This document shows positions 1-8,059 of a DNA stretch of 8,059 nt, piece after piece. Position numbers and translations under genes: made by a program. Source of the stretch: a virus (taxonomy: Duplodnaviria; Heunggongvirae; Uroviricota; Caudoviricetes); the IMG/VR virus record IMGVR_UViG_2778261541_000003. One strand, written 5' to 3'. The first letter of the stretch is position 1. Each line of letters opens with the position of its first letter. Below the pieces are notes generated by a model that saw only the letters and a list, made by a program, of their open reading frames with translations, was not told the DNA's origin and made no database searches.

Positions 1-50
1 GGTCATCGGGCATTATCTGAACATAAAACACTATCAGTAAGTTGGAGTCA

Positions 51-587
51 CTACCAATAATGTAATATTATTGACTTACGTTGTTTTCTTGCTTCGTAGA
101 ATAAACGCTCTTGCGGCGATAATTTGTGAAAACTGCCGGATGCACAATATATGTTTTTTAACTTTTCGCTGGTTGCTTTTATTGTATCTTCTGAGATGTA
201 TTTTAGGTATTTATCCGTATAGATGTTGCTACTATAAGAAATTAATGTTTTGCTGTTGTTGTGATGTGTTGTATTTTTATCGTTGAAGTCTGTATTTTTA
301 TTTACTGTCATTAGGTTTTTAATGATTACATGTAATGCAATAGTCTCCCCATCATCAATTCCATATTTGATGTCATAGTCAGTATATTTATTTGTTATAC
401 CGCTTCCTGATAGCGGCACTATGTACTCTGAGAAAAATGAGTTTGCCGCGTGACCATCAAGAGCAATAGCAGTTTTTTTGTGGTAAAAATAAAACAATAT
501 TGAGAGAGTCAAAATAATAGCGACGCCTAATGCAACCTTTAATATAGATATGGTTTTCAAAATATCGCTCCTTGTTGTAACATACAT
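51..587 (-). CDS. Hypothetical signal-anchored (single N-terminal TM helix) protein, Asn/Lys/Tyr-rich, AT-rich gene
   Basis: ORF track 51..608 (-). Hydrophobic stretch ILKVALGVAIILTLSILFYFY followed by HKK. The track start at 608 is TTG with no SD. In-frame ATG at 587..585 chosen here; an alternative TTG at 560 is preceded by a strong AAGGAG (rc of 568-573) at 7 nt spacing and would give N-terminus MKTISILKV. No family recognised. Confidence 0.55.
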   Translation of the reverse strand: MYVTTRSDILKTISILKVALGVAIILTLSILFYFYHKKTAIALDGHAANSFFSEYIVPLSGSGITNKYTDYDIKYGIDDGETIALHVIIKNLMTVNKNTDFNDKNTTHHNNSKTLISYSSNIYTDKYLKYISEDTIKATSEKLKNIYCASGSFHKLSPQERLFYEARKQRKSIILHYW

Positions 588-650: not shown

Positions 651-1082
651 CTATTCAGGTATTTCAATTCCAAAACCATCTGCATCCCATGAGTTTTCAC
701 AGATGATGTAACCTAGTTCATTGAGCTTATTAAATGTTTTTTCAAAGATGATCTGGTAATCATTATCTGCAAGTGATTCCAGTTCAAGGTCATTAAGGTT
801 TATATAAAAACTTGTATGTCCAAGTGTTATTTTCTTATTGATTTCATTAAAAGTTCTTTTGAAAATAATATTTGATATTTCATGCCGTGCATTGTTTGCA
901 ATAATTTTTGCTTCATAAGCAGAAATTACGTCATCTTCATGAATATCTTTCAGAAAGCTGGTGTCAAGACGTTGTACTATTTCAGCGTTCATTGAGCGCT
1001 TATTGGCTTTTGCAGAAATTTCTATTTTTTCTTTTACTTCAACGGGAAGTCTGATCCTTAGTTGTGGATCTTCTCTGCTCAT
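651..1082 (-). CDS. mnt: Mnt-like ribbon-helix-helix (Arc/MetJ superfamily) repressor with an extra ~95-aa C-terminal domain of unknown function
   Basis: ORF track 651..1112 starts at TTG; in-frame ATG at 1082..1080 preceded by GGTGA. N-terminus MSREDPQLRIRLPVEVKEKIEISAKANKRSMNAEIVQRLD aligns closely with P22 Mnt as I recall it (MARDDPHFNFRMPMEVREKLKFRAEANGRSMNSELLQIV). Divergent from an arc-ant pair as in P22 immI. Confidence 0.8.
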   Translation of the reverse strand: MSREDPQLRIRLPVEVKEKIEISAKANKRSMNAEIVQRLDTSFLKDIHEDDVISAYEAKIIANNARHEISNIIFKRTFNEINKKITLGHTSFYINLNDLELESLADNDYQIIFEKTFNKLNELGYIICENSWDADGFGIEIPE

Positions 1083-1202: not shown

Positions 1203-1370
1203 ATGCAAAAAGCAAAAGAGATGTGTCAACGACGAGTTCGTTTTCCGGACGATGTGAAGTTAGCTATTGAAAGAAATGGCGAAAAAGAATGCCGAAAGTT
1301 CAATACAGAGATTATCTATCAGCTGAGGAAAGTGTATGGACTCACTGGTGAGAAGAATAGCGTGGCATAA
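1203..1370 (+). CDS. arc: Arc-like ribbon-helix-helix transcriptional repressor (55 aa)
   Basis: ORF track 1167..1370 starts at TTG; in-frame ATG at 1203 has AAGGAG (1190-1195) 7 nt upstream. RRVRFPDDVKLAIERNGEKECRKFNTEIIYQLRK resembles the P22 Arc RHH fold (FNLRWPREV...ENGRSVNSEIYQRV). Size and position (immediately upstream of ant) match arc. Confidence 0.75.
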   Translation: MQKAKEMCQRRVRFPDDVKLAIERNGEKECRKFNTEIIYQLRKVYGLTGEKNSVA

Positions 1371-1442
1371 AACAGCGAAGCCCAACGGTGGCCAGACCGT
1401 CAGGGCTTCAGTATCGTAAAACTACGTATAGGAATTAACGAC
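1367..1442 (-). ncRNA. Candidate sar-like antisense RNA covering the ant ribosome-binding site
   Basis: Minus-strand sigma70-like promoter (-35 TTGATA, 17-bp spacer, -10 TATACT) predicts a start near 1441-1443. The transcript would be antisense to the ant SD (AGGAA 1430-1434) and end at a minus-strand hairpin GAAGCCC...GGGCTTC (1377-1409) followed by GCUGUUUUAU. Predicted length ~75 nt, comparable to P22 sar (~68 nt, from memory). Confidence 0.5.
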
Positions 1443-2387
1443 ATGACGAGTATAGCAACAGCGGTATCTACTATCAACGTGCCATTCCACGGCGCAGAAC
1501 TTTATGTTGTCAATCACAACGGAGAACCGTACACCCCAATGAAACCTATCGTTGAAGGCATGGGTATGGATTGGGCTTCACAGTTTACGAAAATGAAGCA
1601 GCGGTTTAAAACCTGCATTGTGAAAATCACAATGCAGCTTCCTGGGGATGAACAGCGCCGTGAGATTATTTGTTTGGCACTTCGCAAACTTGCTGGCTGG
1701 TTGCAAACCATCAGCCCTAACAAAGTCCGCCCTGAAATCCGCGACAAGGTAATCCAGTATCAGGAAGAGTGTGACGATGTTCTCTACGAGTACTGGACTA
1801 AAGGCCATGTGGTTAACCCACGCAAAGCTAAAAAGGCGTTGCCGGGTAAAATAACCACTGAACAGCAGGAAGCCATTAAACAACTCGTCATGAGTCGCGG
1901 TCAGTCTCTGCCAAAAGAAAAACAGGCTAAGGCGATGATCACCATGTGGTCGTCACTGAAATCTCATTTTGGCTGTTCGTACAAAGAAATTGATGAAGAT
2001 CAATTCGCCGAAGCGTTGTCTCTTGTTGCTCGGGTTCCGCTTGAAGGGGAGCATCTCCCTGCTGGATCTGCATCAGAGAATGATGAAGTGGCAGTCAAGA
2101 TGTTAGATGCGCTTCGTGAGGCAATTAAAACACAGACAAAATGTTATGGTTATCCGCTGAAGCCCGGCTACCGCAGTCTGATTCATTCGCCGTCTGGTGT
2201 TCTCGGCCTGACGGAGAACTCACTGCTGATGAATCTGCTTAACCAGTTACAGGACGACGGGCACGATGTATCGGGCGCGGCGGCGGAGCTGACCACCATG
2301 TTCTGCTACATCGTCGGTGTGAGCAAATGCCTGCGTGATATCCAGACCCACGCGGAGTACATCAACGACAAGGCTGGGTTCTTCTGA
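1443..2387 (+). CDS. ant: Phage antirepressor (Ant; P22-antirepressor-like N-terminal domain plus conserved C-terminal domain)
   Basis: 314-aa ORF; AGGAA 8 nt upstream of ATG. Follows arc as in immI. N-terminal region (...LAGWLQTISPNKVRPEIRDKVIQYQEECDDVLYEYWTKG) resembles the P22 antirepressor N-domain family as I recall it. C-terminal ~80 aa are shared with two other genes in the window. Confidence 0.88.
   Translation: MTSIATAVSTINVPFHGAELYVVNHNGEPYTPMKPIVEGMGMDWASQFTKMKQRFKTCIVKITMQLPGDEQRREIICLALRKLAGWLQTISPNKVRPEIRDKVIQYQEECDDVLYEYWTKGHVVNPRKAKKALPGKITTEQQEAIKQLVMSRGQSLPKEKQAKAMITMWSSLKSHFGCSYKEIDEDQFAEALSLVARVPLEGEHLPAGSASENDEVAVKMLDALREAIKTQTKCYGYPLKPGYRSLIHSPSGVLGLTENSLLMNLLNQLQDDGHDVSGAAAELTTMFCYIVGVSKCLRDIQTHAEYINDKAGFF
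1449..1477 (-). promoter_or_regulatory. Candidate sigma70 promoter for the sar-like antisense RNA
   Basis: -35 TTGATA = rc of 1472-1477; 17-bp spacer; -10 TATACT = rc of 1449-1454. Lies inside the first codons of ant. Confidence 0.5.
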
Positions 2388-2422: not shown

Positions 2423-2533
2423 CTGTACAGATTGCAGACTGTGGGTGAATAGCGTACTATTACCTCAAGGGTAAGAAAGCATTTTTAATCTTCCCTTCAA
2501 AACGCGTCCTGTAGCCAAACATGGGAGGACGAA

Positions 2534-3166
2534 ATGAGAACAAATACAACAAGAAAAGCGATGCCATACATTATCCCAGAAGCAGATTTCGATAGAAAAC
2601 TGAACATGTCTGAGAAGAACACTAGTCACACCGAAAGCTACTTAGCGAAAGGTGTGGTTGATTTCGTTCTTCCGGGATTCACAACACCTTATGGTTATCG
2701 CCTTGTAAAATCTTGTAATGGCGATCATTACAGAATGATTACTACCAGCGATACTCCAGAAACGGTGTATGCGGTTAAGTTAATCTTTCGGGAAGATATC
2801 GTCGAAGCCAAAAGAACATGTACGCAGATCATGGTATGGCGTACGCCTAATGTTATTCATGACCGTGCTGTTCATGGTTTGCCTCAGATTTTTTTTCAGT
2901 TCTTCCTAGAGCAATATGCGATCGTTGTATCTGATGAGCAACAAACAATCGATGGGAGGAGATTCTGGGAAAGAATGATTTCTTGGGCTATAAACACCCC
3001 GGGATATAATGTATACGTTTCAGATGGCTCTGAAGAAGATAGACCTCTTAGCTTCATGACATCATGGGATGATTTCTATAGCCAGTGGGCTGATTTCTGT
3101 TGGGGCAGTGATAAAGATGTGCATACCCACAGACTACTGGTTATAAGCAAAGATAAACTGCATTAA
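2534..3166 (+). CDS. Hypothetical protein (210 aa), cassette gene, no recognisable family
   Basis: ATG at 2534 with GGGAGGA SD 5 nt upstream; stop TAA 3164-3166; visibly lower GC than the flanking ant genes. Convergent with the 3187-3630 gene, sharing a bidirectional terminator. Confidence 0.7.
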   Translation: MRTNTTRKAMPYIIPEADFDRKLNMSEKNTSHTESYLAKGVVDFVLPGFTTPYGYRLVKSCNGDHYRMITTSDTPETVYAVKLIFREDIVEAKRTCTQIMVWRTPNVIHDRAVHGLPQIFFQFFLEQYAIVVSDEQQTIDGRRFWERMISWAINTPGYNVYVSDGSEEDRPLSFMTSWDDFYSQWADFCWGSDKDVHTHRLLVISKDKLH

Positions 3167-3169
3167 TAG

Positions 3170-3188
3170 AAGCCCGCGGCGCGGGCTT
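3170..3188. terminator. Bidirectional hairpin terminator between convergent cassette genes
   Basis: AAGCCCGC-ggc-GCGGGCTT perfect 8-bp GC-rich stem at 3170-3188, followed by TTCTTCTTCTTC on the plus strand; overlaps the stop codon of the minus-strand gene. Confidence 0.55.
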
Positions 3189-3630
3189 ATTCTTCTTCTT
3201 CATCATTAAAAAGCGGATTGTTGTTTCCATCTGATGAAAGGAAAGGTATGTGTTCTCTTGAAAATCCAACAATGACAATTTCATTATCATTTTTTGCATA
3301 ATGAATGCATTCATTAGAATGCATTCCGCCAGGGTTGAAATTTAAGTTAATGGTATAATTCTTAAATGTGTTTGGATACCATGTTGGCCCACAATGATAA
3401 TGCCAATAATTCTCTTGCTCATAATTGTCTGAGCCGGGAATTTTATCATGGTTATCATCAACCCACGAGGGCTTGTTTTTTCCAACAAGCGCCCTTCCAT
3501 TGGCAACATCCTCTAAAAACCTTTGTATGATTTTTATTTCATCATCAGTAAGGAAAGGTCCGTCTACAGCGAAAGGGGTGTTGCTTTCCCCATGTAGAAA
3601 ACTATTAGATATTCTAATGTTAAACTTCAA
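3187..3630 (-). CDS. Hypothetical protein (147 aa) with acidic C-terminal tail, no recognisable family; possible toxin or effector partner of the upstream small ORF
   Basis: ORF track 3187..3630. Start is TTG (rc of 3628-3630) with AGGAG SD 6 nt upstream; no in-frame ATG until residue ~103. Ends ...NDEEEE. Contains YWHYHCGPTWYP. Confidence 0.65.
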   Translation of the reverse strand: MKFNIRISNSFLHGESNTPFAVDGPFLTDDEIKIIQRFLEDVANGRALVGKNKPSWVDDNHDKIPGSDNYEQENYWHYHCGPTWYPNTFKNYTINLNFNPGGMHSNECIHYAKNDNEIVIVGFSREHIPFLSSDGNNNPLFNDEEEE

Positions 3631-3650: not shown

Positions 3651-3818
3651 CTATTTGGAGCGAAATGCCGCCTTGAAGTCGCTAAAAGATGTTCCTGTCT
3701 GGTAAACCATATCCTTGTCGCGCTCTTTGCTTGCGCGACCAAGCATAACTTTTCCAATGACATCCCAGCATTGCTTGGCTTGTTCATTGTGCTGAGTACG
3801 ATTTTTCAACGCTGTCAT
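3651..3818 (-). CDS. Small hypothetical protein (55 aa), first gene of a two-gene minus-strand operon; not in the ORF track (below its length cut-off)
   Basis: Hand translation of minus strand from ATG at 3818..3816: MTALKNRTQHNEQAKQCWDVIGKVMLGRASKERDKDMVYQTGTSFSDFKAAFRSK, stop at 3651-3653. Strong AGGAGG SD (rc of 3825-3830) 6 nt upstream. Stop lies 20 nt before the SD/TTG of the next gene. Confidence 0.45.
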   Translation of the reverse strand: MTALKNRTQHNEQAKQCWDVIGKVMLGRASKERDKDMVYQTGTSFSDFKAAFRSK

Positions 3819-3874
3819 ATCGCGCCTCCTTTACCTTTAAGGTAATATTACGCGAATCTACATCACATCGCCAA
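3819..3874 (-). promoter_or_regulatory. Candidate sigma70 promoter with palindromic operator for the 3651-3818 / 3187-3630 operon
   Basis: Minus strand: -35 TTGGCG (rc of 3869-3874), 18-bp spacer, -10 TAATAT (rc of 3845-3850), immediately followed by perfect 15-bp palindrome TTACCTTTAAGGTAA (3831-3845) over the predicted start site, then AGGAGG. Confidence 0.5.
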
Positions 3875-3879
3875 TGATT

Positions 3880-3903
3880 ATTTTAAAGGCACATCCCTGT
3901 GCC
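3880..3903 (-). terminator. Intrinsic terminator downstream of the second antirepressor (inside the repeat)
   Basis: Hairpin at 3888-3903 (GGCACA-loop-TGTGCC) followed on the minus strand by TTTAAAATAAT. Confidence 0.5.
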
Positions 3904-4141
3904 GCCGCCCGTCAGAAGAATCCTGCTTTGTCGCTGATGTACTCCGCGTGCGTCTGGATATCACGCAGGCATTTGCTCACACCGACGATGTAGCAGAACA
4001 TGGTGGTCAGCTCCGCCGCCGCGCCCGATACATCGTGCCCGTCGTCCTGTAACTGGTTAAGCAGATTCATCAGCAGTGAGTTCTCCGTCAGGCCGAGAAC
4101 ACCAGACGGCGAGTGAATCAGGCTGCGGTAGCCGGGCTTCA
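3882..4141. repeat. Inverted repeat copy B (partner of 2157-2418)
   Basis: Reverse complement matches copy A; covers the last ~77 codons of the second antirepressor plus its terminator hairpin. Confidence 0.9.
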
Positions 4142-4568
4142 GTGGGGCGCTGTATTCTTTTTTGTCTTCCAGCTTGATCGCCTCCATAATGGCGGGCATG
4201 AAGCCTGACAAGACCTTCTCCACTTTTGTTTCTTGTTGTCTTAAACGTTTCTCGCATTCAATGAAGTAGCGTCGCACCTGGCGACCTTTTTCGTTACGCT
4301 CGACCATCGCCAGCTCTTTGGCTGTATCAAGGGTGAGGTGGTACTCTTTGCGGTTGTGGCCGCCTCTACCAGATGTTTGCTTTCCCAAATTGGAAAGCAA
4401 AATATAGTCTTGATTTTCAATGAATTCGTATTCTGATATGCGATTTGTAATCCATGCTGCAAACACCTTTTTAACACCTAAAAAAGCGTGCAGATCGCGG
4501 GCATTACAAAGTAGGGCTGTTTCGTTAGATATAGTGCCGTTGAATACGGGGATGAGTTGAGCGTTCAT
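3912..4568 (-). CDS. Phage antirepressor, second copy: different N-terminal domain (Bro-N/ORF6N/Rha-like, tentative) fused to the same C-terminal domain as Ant
   Basis: 218-aa ORF; ATG at 4568..4566 with GGAGA SD (rc of 4576-4580). N-terminal part (...[33 protein letters not shown]...[32 protein letters not shown]) resembles phage antirepressor N-terminal families. C-terminal 77 aa are ~97% identical to Ant (1443-2387). Confidence 0.88.
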
Positions 4569-4596
4569 GATGGCGTCTCCACTTAGCGAATTACAT

Positions 4597-4804
4597 CACC
4601 ACCGCTGAGACCAATCAGATGGTGGTGAACTGAACGGAGTTGGTCTTACCGGCCTAAGTGGTACCGGCGTCCTTTCGGACCCCCATTCAGCCCACCATAA
4701 TTCTGGCATGACTGTGCTATACGCATAAAAAAACCACGTCTGGCGTGGTATGCGCCACTTAGTAATCCGGGAGACCAATCCCGGCACTGGATTTTGCCAG
4801 TGCC
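4597..4804 (-). other. Hairpin-rich untranslated leader upstream of the second antirepressor
   Basis: H1 at 4597-4627: CACCACC-g-CTGA-[gaccaa]-TCAG-at-GGTGGTG. H4 at 4767-4784: CCGGGA-[gaccaa]-TCCCGG, same hexaloop. H5 at 4783-4804: GGCACTGG-attttg-CCAGTGCC. No convincing ORF in this ~400 bp (track ORF 4596..4928 rejected). Confidence 0.45.
4726..4749 (-). terminator. Candidate intrinsic terminator or attenuator within the leader (minus strand)
   Basis: Minus-strand RNA ACCACG-CCAGA-CGUGGU followed by UUUUUUU (plus-strand A-run 4727-4733). Sits ~160 nt upstream of the second antirepressor start codon. Confidence 0.45.
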
Positions 4805-4839
4805 CGATTACTATGGCACAAGAGGAGTGCAATGTAAAT

Positions 4840-4948
4840 TTACCGCAAAGGTAATGATAAACGCGAAGAAATATTAAAATCAACCGTATTTGGTTGATTG
4901 CGTTTAACGCTTGATCACCTGAAAGCAAGATATTACCTTTAAGGTAAT
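4840..4948. promoter_or_regulatory. Two palindromic TTACC-N5-GGTAA operator-like sites
   Basis: Site 1 TTACC-gcaaa-GGTAA at 4840-4854. Site 2 is a perfect 17-bp palindrome ATTACCTTTAAGGTAAT at 4932-4948. Centres are ~94 bp apart. Site 2 lies ~20 bp upstream of the start of ORF 4968-5696 and at the distal end of the minus-strand leader. Confidence 0.5.
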
Positions 4949-4967
4949 GTTATTGTGAGGAAAAGCA

Positions 4968-5696
4968 ATGGAAGTTTTCTGGATAGTTGTTGGTGTGGTT
5001 GCGGTGATTATTTACGTTATCAACCAGAACAAGACTAAGATCTCTGATCGTACGGTCGTTAATCATAACAAAACGATAAAGACCGAAGATGGGGAGATAA
5101 CGATTAATCGTACACAGGTGATAGAACACACCTCTACTCAGTTTCAAAAAACTGGAGGTAATGCGCCTAATATTTCCGCACCTCCTGCTTATGATAGTGC
5201 GGTAATCCAGACATATTATAAACAGCAGGAGTTAGCAAAAGAGAGGCAACTGATTCAGCCAAAGCCGTTTACAGCTGAGCTTCCACCTGGAGTGTCAACG
5301 CGTCCGGCATATCATGGAAGATTCCCTGGTGATGACATATCGTCTCAGTCATCTAAAAAAGCACCTCAGGCAGTATCAGAGCCAGCAAGAATACCTTCTG
5401 TATCGCCGCCAAAAGAAGAATCAGCTAACAGAGTTTCAAGTGGTAGCAAGCAGTGCTTGCGATGCAGAATAAACCTACCATATGAAAAATTCAGGAAATC
5501 GTCAAAAAATCCAGATGGATTGACTAAGTGGTGTGCAAGGTGTCTCGATGGCCCAAAGAATACACGCCATATGAAGTGGTGCCCAATTTGTAATGTCCGC
5601 AGAAAACGAACAAGCTTTTACCCTAATAATCAAAATGCGGATGGCTTAATGGCATGGTGCAAAACGTGCTGGGACGAGCACAAAGCGAAACGATAG
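4968..5696 (+). CDS. Membrane-anchored protein with Pro/Ser-rich linker and C-terminal tandem CxxC-N20-WCxxC (zinc-ribbon-like) motifs; function unknown
   Basis: 242-aa ORF; GAGG 7 nt upstream of ATG. N-terminal TM helix MEVFWIVVGVVAVIIYVI followed by NQNKTK (positive-inside rule suggests a cytoplasmic C-domain). Two Cys motifs: CLRCRINLPYEKFRKSSKNPDGLTKWCARC and CPICNVRRKRTSFYPNNQNADGLMAWCKTC. Terminator follows. Confidence 0.75.
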   Translation: MEVFWIVVGVVAVIIYVINQNKTKISDRTVVNHNKTIKTEDGEITINRTQVIEHTSTQFQKTGGNAPNISAPPAYDSAVIQTYYKQQELAKERQLIQPKPFTAELPPGVSTRPAYHGRFPGDDISSQSSKKAPQAVSEPARIPSVSPPKEESANRVSSGSKQCLRCRINLPYEKFRKSSKNPDGLTKWCARCLDGPKNTRHMKWCPICNVRRKRTSFYPNNQNADGLMAWCKTCWDEHKAKR

Positions 5697-5720
5697 GCCG
5701 CTCTTGCGGCCTTTAAATTT
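5696..5720 (+). terminator. Intrinsic terminator after the Cys-rich membrane protein gene
   Basis: GGCCGC-TCTT-GCGGCC (5696-5711) followed by TTTAAATTT; stem overlaps the stop codon TAG 5694-5696. Confidence 0.6.
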
Positions 5721-5976
5721 ACCGGGTTTGTTTTCGTAATTGTTCGGCACAATAGTCGAGATGTGTTTGCAGATCCCGCATAGACATCTGTGAGCTGGTG
5801 ACGTAGTTAATCAGTGCAGTCAGTTCGGCAAGTGGGCCATCGACATTAAATCCATCCTTATCGAGATCCCGGAGTAATTTCATCAAGTGCGATCCCTCCA
5901 CCAGTGACCTGACGCCTCCCGGCGTGTGAATCCTTTCGGTAAATCCGTCTTCCAGTGGATAGTGATACTGCTGCAT
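5719..5976 (-). CDS. Small stand-alone antirepressor C-terminal-domain protein (85 aa), candidate SOS-inducible mini-antirepressor
   Basis: ORF track 5719..5994 starts at TTG; in-frame ATG at 5976..5974 with GGAGA SD 7 nt upstream. PLEDGFTERIHTPGGVRSLVEGSHLMKLLRDLDKDGFNVDGPLAELTALINYVTSSQMSMRDLQTHLDY aligns over its length with the shared C-terminal domain of the two larger antirepressors ([69 protein letters not shown]). LexA box 20 bp upstream. Confidence 0.8.
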   Translation of the reverse strand: MQQYHYPLEDGFTERIHTPGGVRSLVEGSHLMKLLRDLDKDGFNVDGPLAELTALINYVTSSQMSMRDLQTHLDYCAEQLRKQTR

Positions 5977-5995
5977 CTTATCTTCTCCATGCAAT

Positions 5996-6015
5996 AACTG
6001 TATAAATATACAGTA
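5996..6015. promoter_or_regulatory. LexA (SOS) box
   Basis: AACTGTATAAATATACAGTA at 5996-6015 is CTGT-N8-ACAG with an AT-rich spacer, 18/20 match to the E. coli consensus TACTGTATATATATACAGTA. A TTGATA -35-like hexamer abuts it on the minus-strand upstream side. It lies 20 nt upstream of the 5976 start codon. Confidence 0.8.
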
Positions 6016-6051
6016 TCAAATAATTTGTTTGCTATCCAGCACGTTTTGCGA

Positions 6052-6118
6052 ATCACCTGAAAGGTAATATCTGTTCGTATTTATGGGTTATCTATCCATA
6101 TATGGTTTTTAAGGTAAT
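6052..6118 (+). promoter_or_regulatory. Repeated motifs upstream of the tail-fibre gene (ATCACCTGAAAG plus two AAGGTAAT half-sites)
   Basis: ATCACCTGAAAG-GTAATAT at 6052-6069 (TCACC-tgaaa-GGTAA, imperfect palindrome) and TTTTTAAGGTAATAG at 6106-6120. Same motif family as 3831-3845, 4840-4854 and 4932-4948. Confidence 0.4.
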
Positions 6119-6171
6119 AGAATAACCGGATATGCGGCGCAACGGGTGCTGCTACTATCTGGAGATTTAAC

Positions 6172-7941
6172 ATGACGGTCTCAACCGAAGTTGACCACAA
6201 CGAATACACAGGTAACGGTGTTACAACGGCATTCCCTTATACCTTCAGGATTTTCCAGAAATCTGATTTAGTAGTGCAGGTTGTTGACCTGAACGAGAAC
6301 ATCACAGAGCTGATTCTTGATACTGATTACATAGTCACTGGTGCGGGAGGGTATAACGGCGGCAATGTAATTCTGTCGAAGGCGTTGGCTAACGGTTATC
6401 AGATTTCTATATCAAGAGAGCTACCGGTTACGCAGGATACCGATCTGCGCAACCAGGGTAAGTTCTTCGCTGAGGTGCATGAAGACGCATTCGATAAACT
6501 GACGATGCTGATCCAGCAGGTTCGCAGTTGGTTTGCCTTGGCGCTGCGCAAGCCATCAACCATCGCTAACTGGTACGACGCGCTGGGGAATTACATTCGC
6601 AACCTGCGCGACCCACGAGACCCGCAGGATGCTGCCACTAAAAATTATGTAGACACGATTAGTAACAACAACTATCTGCACACGTTAAGGGTTCCAGAGT
6701 CATTTACGCGGCAACTCCCTCCTGCTGCAGAACGTGCAAATATGATCCATGCATATGATTATGCAGGTGAGTCCATTATGGTCTTGCCTGAGAGCGGTAG
6801 TGCAGCAGATGTTCTGTTATTGCTGGCGCAACCTGACGGGCTTAAGAGGATTGGCACAAAAGTTAATTACGGTATACCGGTTGGATCTACTTTAACCGAT
6901 GGCGTCACTTTTTCTTTTGATAAGGATAAAGGTTGGCTGAGAATTGGTGGTGCCGATCTCCTACCACTTGACGATGAAAAGAACTTCTGGAGAGGCTTGC
7001 CTACACCGAGAAATTCATGGTGTAACCCGGCTCTTATCGGTGATTACTCAGTATCTTTTAACAGAAACGGTGCGTCATTCGCGGTATACGCCACAACTTT
7101 CGGGCATGACTGCGTTACGTACGGCGCGGCATCTATTGCCGGTGGTGCTGGTTCTGCCACTGGGGACCCAGATCATATTACCTCACCAAATGCTGAGGGG
7201 TACTGCTCTTTTGCATTTGGGAAAAATGTCATTGCTCTTGGAGCAAAATCTGCCGCATTCTGTGAAGAAACGGAAGCGCTTTCAAGGGCGGCTTTTGCAA
7301 CAGGTTATTATACACAAGCCAGACCGGGATACACTACAGACCCCGGCGGGGTTGCAAGTGATGGCATTGGTGCGGCGGCCATTGGATATCGAACTCGCGC
7401 GGCAGGAGATGGCTCTTTTGCTGTAGGTAAGAATATTCAGGCTTATGGTGGTTCGATTGCGATCGGGTGCGGCACTGATGAAGATAACCCAGCAGTCAAT
7501 CCACATAAAGACTCAGTGATGCTGTTTGCAAAATCGCTTATTCCAGGTATATCCGTTGTACCTGGTGGCGGTGGGCCGGAGGAACCATCGCGTGTAGGGG
7601 GGCACACAAAATACCCTAAAGAAATAGTGGATGTAGTACTGGAGGGAGGGGGCCGCGCAGCCATCAGAATACCAGGGATAGGAACTGGTACGATCTTGCT
7701 GCAAGGGACAGATAACGACGGCAATGCACTTTCTATCGCGTCGCTTGAATGGACAAGCGGAAACGGAGGTAGTGCTGTTGGTTCGTTGAAAATAAACATG
7801 AACAACGACGCACCATGCATTGAATTTCTGGAAGATGGCAAGGTGGTTTTGAAGAACGTAAAAACGTTTGAGGAGATAAACGGCGCCCCCGCGGGCACCA
7901 TTTATAAGGATGCTTCAAACTTCCTTAAAATTGTTGTTTAA
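6172..7941 (+). CDS. Tail fibre / tail spike protein: T7 gp17-like N-terminal adaptor domain with Gly/Ala-rich repeat-containing C-terminal region
   Basis: 589-aa ORF; GGAGA 7 nt upstream of ATG. N-terminus (EYTGNGVTTAFPYTFRIFQKSDLVVQVVD...YIRNLRDPRDPQDAATKNYVD) resembles the conserved N-terminal domain of T7 gp17-type tail fibres. C-terminal half has repeats such as CSFAFGKNVIALGAKSAAF and GSFAVGKNIQAYGGSIAIG that resemble YadA-head/Hep_Hag-type beta-roll repeats. Confidence 0.88.
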   Translation: MTVSTEVDHNEYTGNGVTTAFPYTFRIFQKSDLVVQVVDLNENITELILDTDYIVTGAGGYNGGNVILSKALANGYQISISRELPVTQDTDLRNQGKFFAEVHEDAFDKLTMLIQQVRSWFALALRKPSTIANWYDALGNYIRNLRDPRDPQDAATKNYVDTISNNNYLHTLRVPESFTRQLPPAAERANMIHAYDYAGESIMVLPESGSAADVLLLLAQPDGLKRIGTKVNYGIPVGSTLTDGVTFSFDKDKGWLRIGGADLLPLDDEKNFWRGLPTPRNSWCNPALIGDYSVSFNRNGASFAVYATTFGHDCVTYGAASIAGGAGSATGDPDHITSPNAEGYCSFAFGKNVIALGAKSAAFCEETEALSRAAFATGYYTQARPGYTTDPGGVASDGIGAAAIGYRTRAAGDGSFAVGKNIQAYGGSIAIGCGTDEDNPAVNPHKDSVMLFAKSLIPGISVVPGGGGPEEPSRVGGHTKYPKEIVDVVLEGGGRAAIRIPGIGTGTILLQGTDNDGNALSIASLEWTSGNGGSAVGSLKINMNNDAPCIEFLEDGKVVLKNVKTFEEINGAPAGTIYKDASNFLKIVV

Positions 7942-8059
7942 GATAAGTCATCACCAAGGAAGGCGGTGAGTAGCGCCTCCGCTATTACTCTGTGACCAAA
8001 ATCAGGTGATGCTGCCAACTTACTGATTTAGTGTATGATGGTGTTTTTGAGGTGCTCCA

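Follow-up and report, generated by a model that had tools for sequence, protein, structure and literature searches.

Which protein recognises the TTACC-N5-GGTAA palindromes that recur between the genes of the 8,059-nucleotide Caudoviricetes stretch of IMG/VR record IMGVR_UViG_2778261541_000003 (hereafter the window, always meaning this whole stretch), and which promoters do they serve? The window comes from an epsilon15/phiV10-type (Uetakevirus) prophage, of which it holds the region of the antirepressors and the tail fibre. Its closest phage records are TL-2011b and phiV10 and, more distantly, epsilon15, all of them short-tailed, with phiV10 and epsilon15 classified in the genus Uetakevirus. 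Judging from sequence comparison, the palindromes are very probably operators of the master lysogeny repressor of these prophages, Rep (the family of epsilon15 gp38 and SPC32H Rep). The original prediction, made from the window alone, had proposed operator sites for a dimeric DNA-binding protein and left the regulator without a name; the regulator can be named as the prophage master repressor, which is encoded outside the window.

Five copies of the octamer AAGGTAAT had been counted. The window has seven, where 0.26 would be expected, a number that no shuffle out of 200 attained. Six copies are on the plus strand (starting at 1746, 3839, 4848, 4941, 6061, and 6111). The seventh, at 4932–4939, is on the minus strand and forms the other arm of a 17-bp palindrome, contrary to the claim that the octamer was always on the plus strand. 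The perfect palindrome TTACC-N5-GGTAA occurs four times, for 0.01 expected, at 2460–2474 (TTACCTCAAGGGTAA), 3831–3845, 4840–4854, and 4933–4947. The last three had been recognised as full inverted repeats and the first overlooked; the copy at 4933–4947 had been placed at 4934–4948, although the limits of the 17-bp palindrome around it (4932–4948) were right. All four perfect palindromes are non-coding, so the intergenic location claimed for the octamer holds for them, but not for the octamer at 1746–1753, which falls within the ant1 coding sequence (1443–2387) and has no left arm. A one-mismatch copy, TCACCTGAAAGGTAA, at 6053–6067 agrees with the degenerate site TCACC-TGAAA-GGTAA described there. 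A second supposed degenerate palindrome, the half-site at 6111–6118, turned out to be a right arm alone, with TGGTT at the left-arm position (6103–6107). We refer to the four perfect palindromes and the one-mismatch copy, from left to right, as operators A to E.

The motif is already known, as it is annotated in epsilon15, and the present finding consists of further copies of a known operator. A text search of the literature for the motif gave nothing relevant. The epsilon15 GenBank record (AY150271.2) carries seven protein_bind features with the label 'repressor' and the note 'lysogeny', and all seven are perfect TTACC-N5-GGTAA sites, out of a total of 11 perfect copies in that genome. One of them, at 19895–19911 (ATTACCTGTAAGGTAAT), lies between gp19 and the tailspike gene, which is the position of site E in the window. 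When copies with up to one mismatch were counted against dinucleotide shuffles, 15 were observed in epsilon15 (0.52 expected), 14 in TL-2011b (0.73), 14 in phiV10 (0.72), 18 in SPC32H (0.67), and 15 in Tyrion (0.52), a 20- to 30-fold enrichment in the five complete relatives. Nor is the motif equally frequent inside coding regions, the outcome named beforehand as fatal to the prediction and looked for here in the relatives: 11 of 11 perfect sites in epsilon15 are non-coding (non-coding fraction 0.066; P=1e-13), as are 10 of 10 in TL-2011b (P=2e-8). The same motif is found in all Uetakeviruses examined, Tyrion included. Over 52 perfect sites the consensus reads A-TTACC-(A/T-rich N5)-GGTAA-T with a centre base that is nearly always A or T, which is why the octamer AAGGTAAT had stood out.

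The distribution of the sites within these genomes points to the repressor gene. In each reference phage, clusters of sites flank rep on both sides (in epsilon15, 32479/32555/32617 and 33341/33358/33388), and in TL-2011b one of the flanking clusters overlaps a readable rightward promoter, TTGATT-17-GAATAT. Other copies stand directly before the terminase, head, tail-fibre, lysis, and replication-region operons. Operator clusters also flank rep in UTAK-6, an Escherichia coli strain with a near-identical prophage at guaA that carries the same cassette of 55 and 147 amino acid (aa) genes as the window. There, all copies of the motif are in the prophage or at its int-proximal end, with a single clearly host copy, a one-mismatch site at locus position 354 within the pdeF gene. 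In UTAK-6 the motif thus keeps to the prophage and is all but missing from the flanking host DNA, which speaks against ownership of the sites by a host transcription factor such as MqsA. The palindrome of MqsA is ACCT-N(2-4)-AGGT, and ACCT-TTA-AGGT is indeed contained in sites B and D. However, the outer bases of that core are not conserved in the 52 perfect sites (ACC is followed by T in 25, and GG is preceded by A in 28), so we rejected the MqsA-like reading and regard a host owner as improbable in the extreme.

Rep itself can be followed through this group of phages. The TL-2011b repressor (194 aa) matches PDB entry 5d50_A, 'Repressor' (E=7e-42), the Rep of UTAK-6 is 98% identical to it, and the Reps of the E. 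coli lineage are 42–43% identical to those of epsilon15 and SPC32H. Within the N-terminal helix-turn-helix region the stretch NLVNRW is invariant between the Salmonella and the E. coli Reps, which fits a common half-site. The window also encodes an antirepressor: its 85-aa open reading frame is 85% identical to the antirepressor Ant of SPC32H and matches PDB entry 5d50_E, 'Anti-repressor protein' (E=1.4e-46). Two secondary sources describe the Rep of SPC32H as a tetramer on its palindromic sites, in which each DNA-binding pair is made of domains from different dimers, and state that a tetrameric Ant splits the Rep tetramer (PMC9638917; PMC9986798). The dimeric binder of the original prediction is therefore upheld as regards symmetry, but not as a simple dimer, Rep being described as a tetramer in the first of these sources (PMC9638917). 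The broader proposal, operator sites of a symmetric DNA-binding protein, is borne out by the epsilon15 annotation, the enrichment, the non-coding location, and the clustering beside rep.

The spacing of the sites also fits such a protein. The commonest arrangement of operator pairs is a fixed spacing of 62 bp, found in 10 pairs, and operators C and D of the window are 93 bp apart. Both distances are near whole helical turns and would suit a tetramer holding two sites, and the fixed 62-bp spacing suggests cooperativity, as in lambda CI. The 62-bp pairs are seen in loci L003, L004 (e.g., 5172/5234 and 8227/8289), L005, L006, and L087. There are also recurring tandem pairs at 17–18 bp, directly 5' of the small terminase gene, that stop a few bases short of its start codon. 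In phiV10 (L005) the operator copies at 87–101 and 105–119 fall inside terS as annotated (41–715); as the same pair lies upstream of the start in TL-2011b and epsilon15, the annotated phiV10 start is probably too early.

Could the binder instead be a protein encoded in the window, acting on a local regulon? Such a role could fall to the 55-aa protein, which the original prediction had put forward as a candidate, or to the Arc-like or Mnt-like proteins, and the position of site B directly 5' of the 55-aa gene is the usual layout of an autoregulated small repressor or antitoxin. All five reference phages, however, carry 14–18 copies of the motif, with or without these candidates. The 55-aa, 147-aa, and 210-aa proteins of the window are absent from epsilon15, phiV10, SPC32H, Tyrion, and TL-2011b, and the Arc-like and Mnt-like proteins are found in TL-2011b only. 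No DNA-binding domain can be recognised in the 55-aa protein, and the Mnt/Arc module has different palindromes of its own. This distribution excludes the 55-aa, Arc-like, and Mnt-like proteins as general regulators of the motif, and a window-encoded owner of the sites is highly improbable.

Rep as the binder also agrees with the conservation of the sites, for which we aligned those of the window to 80 related IMG/VR loci (L007–L086) and the reference phages. Sites A and B are present in the 11–12 loci that have the corresponding cassettes, and at site A the arms are kept and the spacer varies in 12 related loci. At site C both arms are kept in 72 of 72 aligned loci, with seven spacer forms among the sequences listed. 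Site D shows no change in 26 loci. Site E was aligned in 83 loci; of the 83 copies listed, about 58 have TTACC without a mismatch, and the TCACC of the window, found in 25, is a minority variant. Constrained arms with a free spacer are the pattern expected of a protein-binding palindrome, and the arms are kept at orthologous sites in the 80 further loci.

Where promoters can be read at the five sites, they suggest what Rep would do there. We infer the promoter positions at sites A–E, those of the two cassettes having been read by eye and those at site C found by a consensus scan. Operator A (TTACCTCAAGGGTAA, 2460–2474) is 5' of the 210-aa cassette gene, with a putative type 1 cassette promoter TTGCAG-17-TACTAT on the plus strand (2432–2460; -10 hexamer TACTAT at 2455–2460). 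Operator B (TTACCTTTAAGGTAA, 3831–3845) is 5' of the leftward 55-aa/147-aa operon; directly after it on the minus strand come a Shine-Dalgarno sequence, AGGAGG, and the ATG at 3818. The putative type 2 cassette promoter of this operon, TTGGCG-18-TAATAT (3845–3874, minus strand), is a diverged copy of type 1. Operator C (TTACCGCAAAGGTAA, 4840–4854) is in the promoter region of the isrK-C4-ant2 operon, between two tandem predicted leftward promoters (4810–4883). The upstream one, TTGATT-18-TATCAT (4883–4854, minus strand), has its -10 hexamer adjoining the operator, and the downstream one, TTTACA-17-CATAGT (4838–4810, minus strand), has its -35 hexamer one base from it; the start of the latter, near 4803, coincides with the point where the isrK model begins. 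At sites A, B, and C the -10-like hexamer and the palindrome share one T, the last of the former and the first of the latter, so the palindrome covers the region of the start site, a repressing position.

Operator D, a second TTACCTTTAAGGTAA copy (4933–4947, within the 17-bp palindrome 4932–4948), is 5' of the gene for a Cys-rich membrane protein and is overlapped by a putative promoter TTGATC-17-TACCTT, with TTGATC at 4911–4916 and TACCTT inside the left arm. The 17-bp distance between these hexamers is kept in a variant with a different operator spacer. Ahead of site D by 17 bp, at 4916–4930, TCACCTGAAAG matches the left half of site E, perhaps as a degenerate operator in tandem, perhaps by chance. 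Operator E (TCACCTGAAAGGTAA, 6053–6067) is between the small antirepressor (small ant) and tail-fibre genes, whose promoters are divergent; it precedes both, the predicted start of the small ant promoter by about 76 bp and the likely tail-fibre promoter by about 70 bp. The operators of the head and lysis operons of epsilon15 have the same upstream position, and the epsilon15 record places an integration host factor (IHF) site directly beside the ortholog of site E.

Several points weigh against assigning the sites to Rep. The rep gene is not found within the window, which is cut by IS1 at both sides. The studied Rep, that of SPC32H, is only 42–43% identical to that of the E. coli lineage, and the repressor sites of the epsilon15 record may have been annotated from experiment or from prediction. 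The promoters at sites A and B score under the threshold of the consensus scan, and site E overlaps neither of its neighbouring core promoters, so simple occlusion is no explanation there. Both the physical binding of Rep to these sites in the E. coli lineage and repression as the direction of control are things we infer. Finally, a Cro-like protein of 76–77 aa (epsilon15 gp39, TL-2011b gp11) is encoded directly opposite rep in five of the five reference phages, with an operator cluster between the two genes. It might be the main binder or share the sites with Rep, and it would then lower these promoters during lytic growth; shared operators are the rule in lambdoid switches, as with lambda Cro and CI. 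However, this protein has no match to a Pfam DNA-binding family, and in the epsilon15 record the sites are those of the repressor, beside which Cro-like binding would only add a second ligand. We therefore consider a Cro-like owner or co-owner possible, if unlikely. In the complete relatives, rep is located about 25 kb away.

The half-site that had been grouped with the palindromes belongs to something else. It is contained in a promoter-like element, TATATGGTTT-TTAA-GGTAATAGAAT, at 6099–6123 on the plus strand, which is probably part of the tail-fibre promoter. Within it, GGTAATAGA is near-invariant in 82 loci, and the left-arm position, TGGTT in the window, is TTACC in none of the 82. The conserved block is TATGTGGTTT-N4-GGTAATAGA, with TATGTGGTTT at 6099–6108. 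In four phages TATGTGGTTT is followed four bases on by a full operator or by GGTAAT, before the head, tail-fibre, lysis, and gp43 operons, and it looks like a promoter element for a factor of its own. Other positions of TATGTGGTTT are 2990, 24753, and 35955 in L003 and 3310, 20923, 24741, and 35118 in phiV10. With no TTACC left arm in 82 loci and a separate recurring element in its place, we rejected the half-site at 6111 as an operator, which it probably is not.

Sites A and B are part of a further pattern, seen at the boundary between the operator and the accessory cassettes. The window (2432–2474 and 3831–3874) and loci L007–L086 show a cassette platform in which the 3' end of an antirepressor gene is followed by a hairpin, the promoter, and the operator, the promoter-operator unit sitting right behind the antirepressor gene. 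The 30 nucleotides 5' of the operator are 91% identical in 44 type 1 units and 93% identical in 15 type 2 units, and directly after GGTAA identity between classes falls to 32%. Nine unrelated classes of downstream cassette are found behind these 59 units, four of them behind both promoter variants, and in TL-2011b a different cassette, that of YafO, lies behind the same promoter-operator. One could thus take the palindrome mainly for a structural boundary or recombination sequence for cassette swapping rather than a regulatory one, as homology ends right after GGTAA in the 59 units and four of the cassette classes are combined with both promoters. However, the fixed places that most copies occupy in complete phages, beside rep or ahead of the head, tail-fibre, lysis, and replication operons, show no exchange of cassettes, and a junction 3' of a conserved promoter-operator is also the product of ordinary selection for a working promoter. 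A mainly structural role is thus very unlikely. That the operator, in addition to its role as a Rep site, is the exchange point of the accessory-cassette system seems quite unlikely too; in such a scheme the palindrome, alone or with tetrameric Rep, would promote swapping, and each acquired gene would automatically come under master-repressor control. The boundary may only reflect selection for a working promoter.

The two promoter-operator units of the window are attached to the arms of a 264-nucleotide inverted repeat, 97% complementary (2154–2417 and 3882–4145), made of the 3' parts of ant1 and ant2 with the hairpin, and this repeat brackets both convergent accessory cassettes. We rejected inversion between the palindromes, or between the 264-nucleotide ant repeats, as the source of the promoter and cassette combinations; there is no sign of it, since most relatives have a single unit only.

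The genes that the operators would serve are the following. The predicted target of operator A is the 210-aa cassette gene (phrog_1349, 2534–3166, plus strand), and those of operator B are the 55-aa (phrog_8607, 3651–3818) and 147-aa (phrog_5954, 3187–3630) genes on the minus strand, convergent with the former. The 55-aa and 147-aa proteins have no Pfam, NCBIfam, or PADLOC match, and a toxin-antitoxin or defence reading of the pair was rejected on these searches. The predicted target of operator D is the Cys-rich membrane protein gene (phrog_6762, 4968–5696, plus strand), whose product has a C-terminal zinc-finger region resembling the Lar-like and endonuclease VII families. Through operator E, the tail-fibre gene (6172–7941, plus strand) is a predicted member of the Rep-controlled set.

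The remainder of the window is occupied by antirepressors. Three antirepressor modules with three control layers are packed in 8 kb (651–2387, 3912–4816, and 5719–6013). The first is P22-like and consists of a Mnt-like gene (651–1082, minus strand), an Arc-like gene (1203–1370, plus strand), a sar RNA (1374–1441, minus strand), and ant1 (1443–2387, plus strand). Its own palindromes near the promoter are CACCGTG/CACGGTG (1129–1160), on either side of a predicted TTGACA-17-GACAAT promoter in the divergent Mnt/Arc region, and CCCCACGGTGGGG (1175–1187), which resembles the core of the P22 Mnt operator. The second module is P1-like, with an isrK-like RNA (4727–4803), a C4 antisense RNA (4618–4702), and ant2 (3912–4568), all on the minus strand; the two RNAs match Rfam at 67.7 and 61.2 bits, respectively, and Ant2 joins an AntA/AntB N-terminus (Pfam AntA) to a C-terminus like that of SPC32H Ant. 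The third is the LexA-controlled small ant of the SPC32H type (85-aa reading frame, 5719–5976, minus strand), with the LexA box CTGTATAAATATACAG at 5998–6013 in its promoter spacer. The C-terminal domains of Ant1 and Ant2 are 39–40% identical to the small Ant (39% for Ant2), and with this domain in common all three may target the same Rep. The ends of the window (1–55 and 8003–8059) are IS1 termini in direct orientation, the right end of one copy at the start of the window and the left end of the next at its end. The 8-kb prophage segment is thus IS1-bracketed in the manner of a composite transposon, and the rest of the prophage, including rep, may be missing or displaced. One scan of genome_contigs for an exact match to the left junction with IS1 gave no hit, and no complete E. 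coli genome matched 80% or more of the window.

How does this arrangement compare with known repressor systems? The epsilon15 sites have the same palindrome, ATTACC-N5-GGTAAT, are scattered and strictly intergenic as in the window, and include one between the small ant and the tailspike gene that matches site E. In contrast to epsilon15, the window derives from an E. coli-lineage prophage whose relatives have a Rep only about 42% identical, and epsilon15 lacks the accessory cassettes and the isrK-C4-ant2 module where sites A–D lie. SPC32H, whose Rep-Ant switch is represented by PDB entries 5D50 and 5D4Z, has a homologous Rep (TL-2011b Rep, E=7e-42), a small Ant 85% identical to that of the window with a LexA box at its gene, as here, and the motif at the same genome positions, whereas the window adds two larger antirepressors with the same C-terminal domain, each with a control layer of its own (Arc/Mnt/sar and isrK/C4). 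We found no description in the literature of Rep binding to cassette promoters. New here, it seems, are the additional sites at the promoters of the accessory cassettes and of isrK-C4-ant2, together with the cassette-boundary pattern.

Phage P1 offers a parallel for site C. P1 C1 is a master repressor with many scattered operators, among them Op51 at the c4-icd-ant (immI) operon, which has two tandem promoters, one of them repressor-controlled. As with C1, an operator lies at the promoter of an operon made of a C4 antisense RNA and then an antirepressor, and the two predicted tandem promoters at site C recall those of immI. The P1 operator, however, is an asymmetric 17-mer bound by an unrelated protein, unlike the symmetric palindrome and the XRE-type helix-turn-helix protein considered here. 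The palindromic operator clusters on both sides of the repressor gene, over divergent promoters, are like the OL/OR of lambda CI, but many extra single operators lie far from the immunity region. A further difference from lambda CI is that Rep is reported to be inactivated by antirepressors and not by RecA-stimulated self-cleavage (PMC9638917).

Taken as a working scheme, Rep, with an N-terminal helix-turn-helix domain and a C-terminal oligomerisation domain, would place one DNA-binding domain on each arm, and a tetramer could occupy two palindromes simultaneously. In the lysogen, Rep on the core promoters at A, B, and D would keep the accessory cassettes and the Cys-rich protein gene off, and at site C it would sit over the more upstream of the two isrK-C4-ant2 promoters. 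For the LexA-controlled small ant and the tail-fibre promoters, site E would serve as an auxiliary site or one acting from upstream. After DNA damage the small Ant would be produced, and this or any other Ant, Ant1 and Ant2 having the same C-terminal domain, would remove Rep from the DNA and turn all these promoters on together. The original prediction of one regulon thus survives as shared control, but not as a special link between the cassette, the membrane protein, and the tail fibre, as the set would be that of all Rep-controlled promoters of the prophage.

The finding leaves the current understanding of phage switches unchanged. It does provide a rule for annotation: in Uetakevirus prophages, those of E. 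coli as well as those of Salmonella and Enterobacter, TTACC-N5-GGTAA is the mark of a promoter with probable master-repressor control. It also predicts that isrK-C4-ant2, an antirepressor operon, is connected to the main switch and, if this IS1-bracketed fragment has lost rep, that its promoters would answer to the Rep of any related co-resident prophage. For the biology of these prophages, it predicts that neither the accessory cassettes nor the Cys-rich protein are expressed in the stable lysogen and that infection or induction switches them on, a type of expression that would fit functions in early takeover or anti-defence better than lysogenic-conversion genes.

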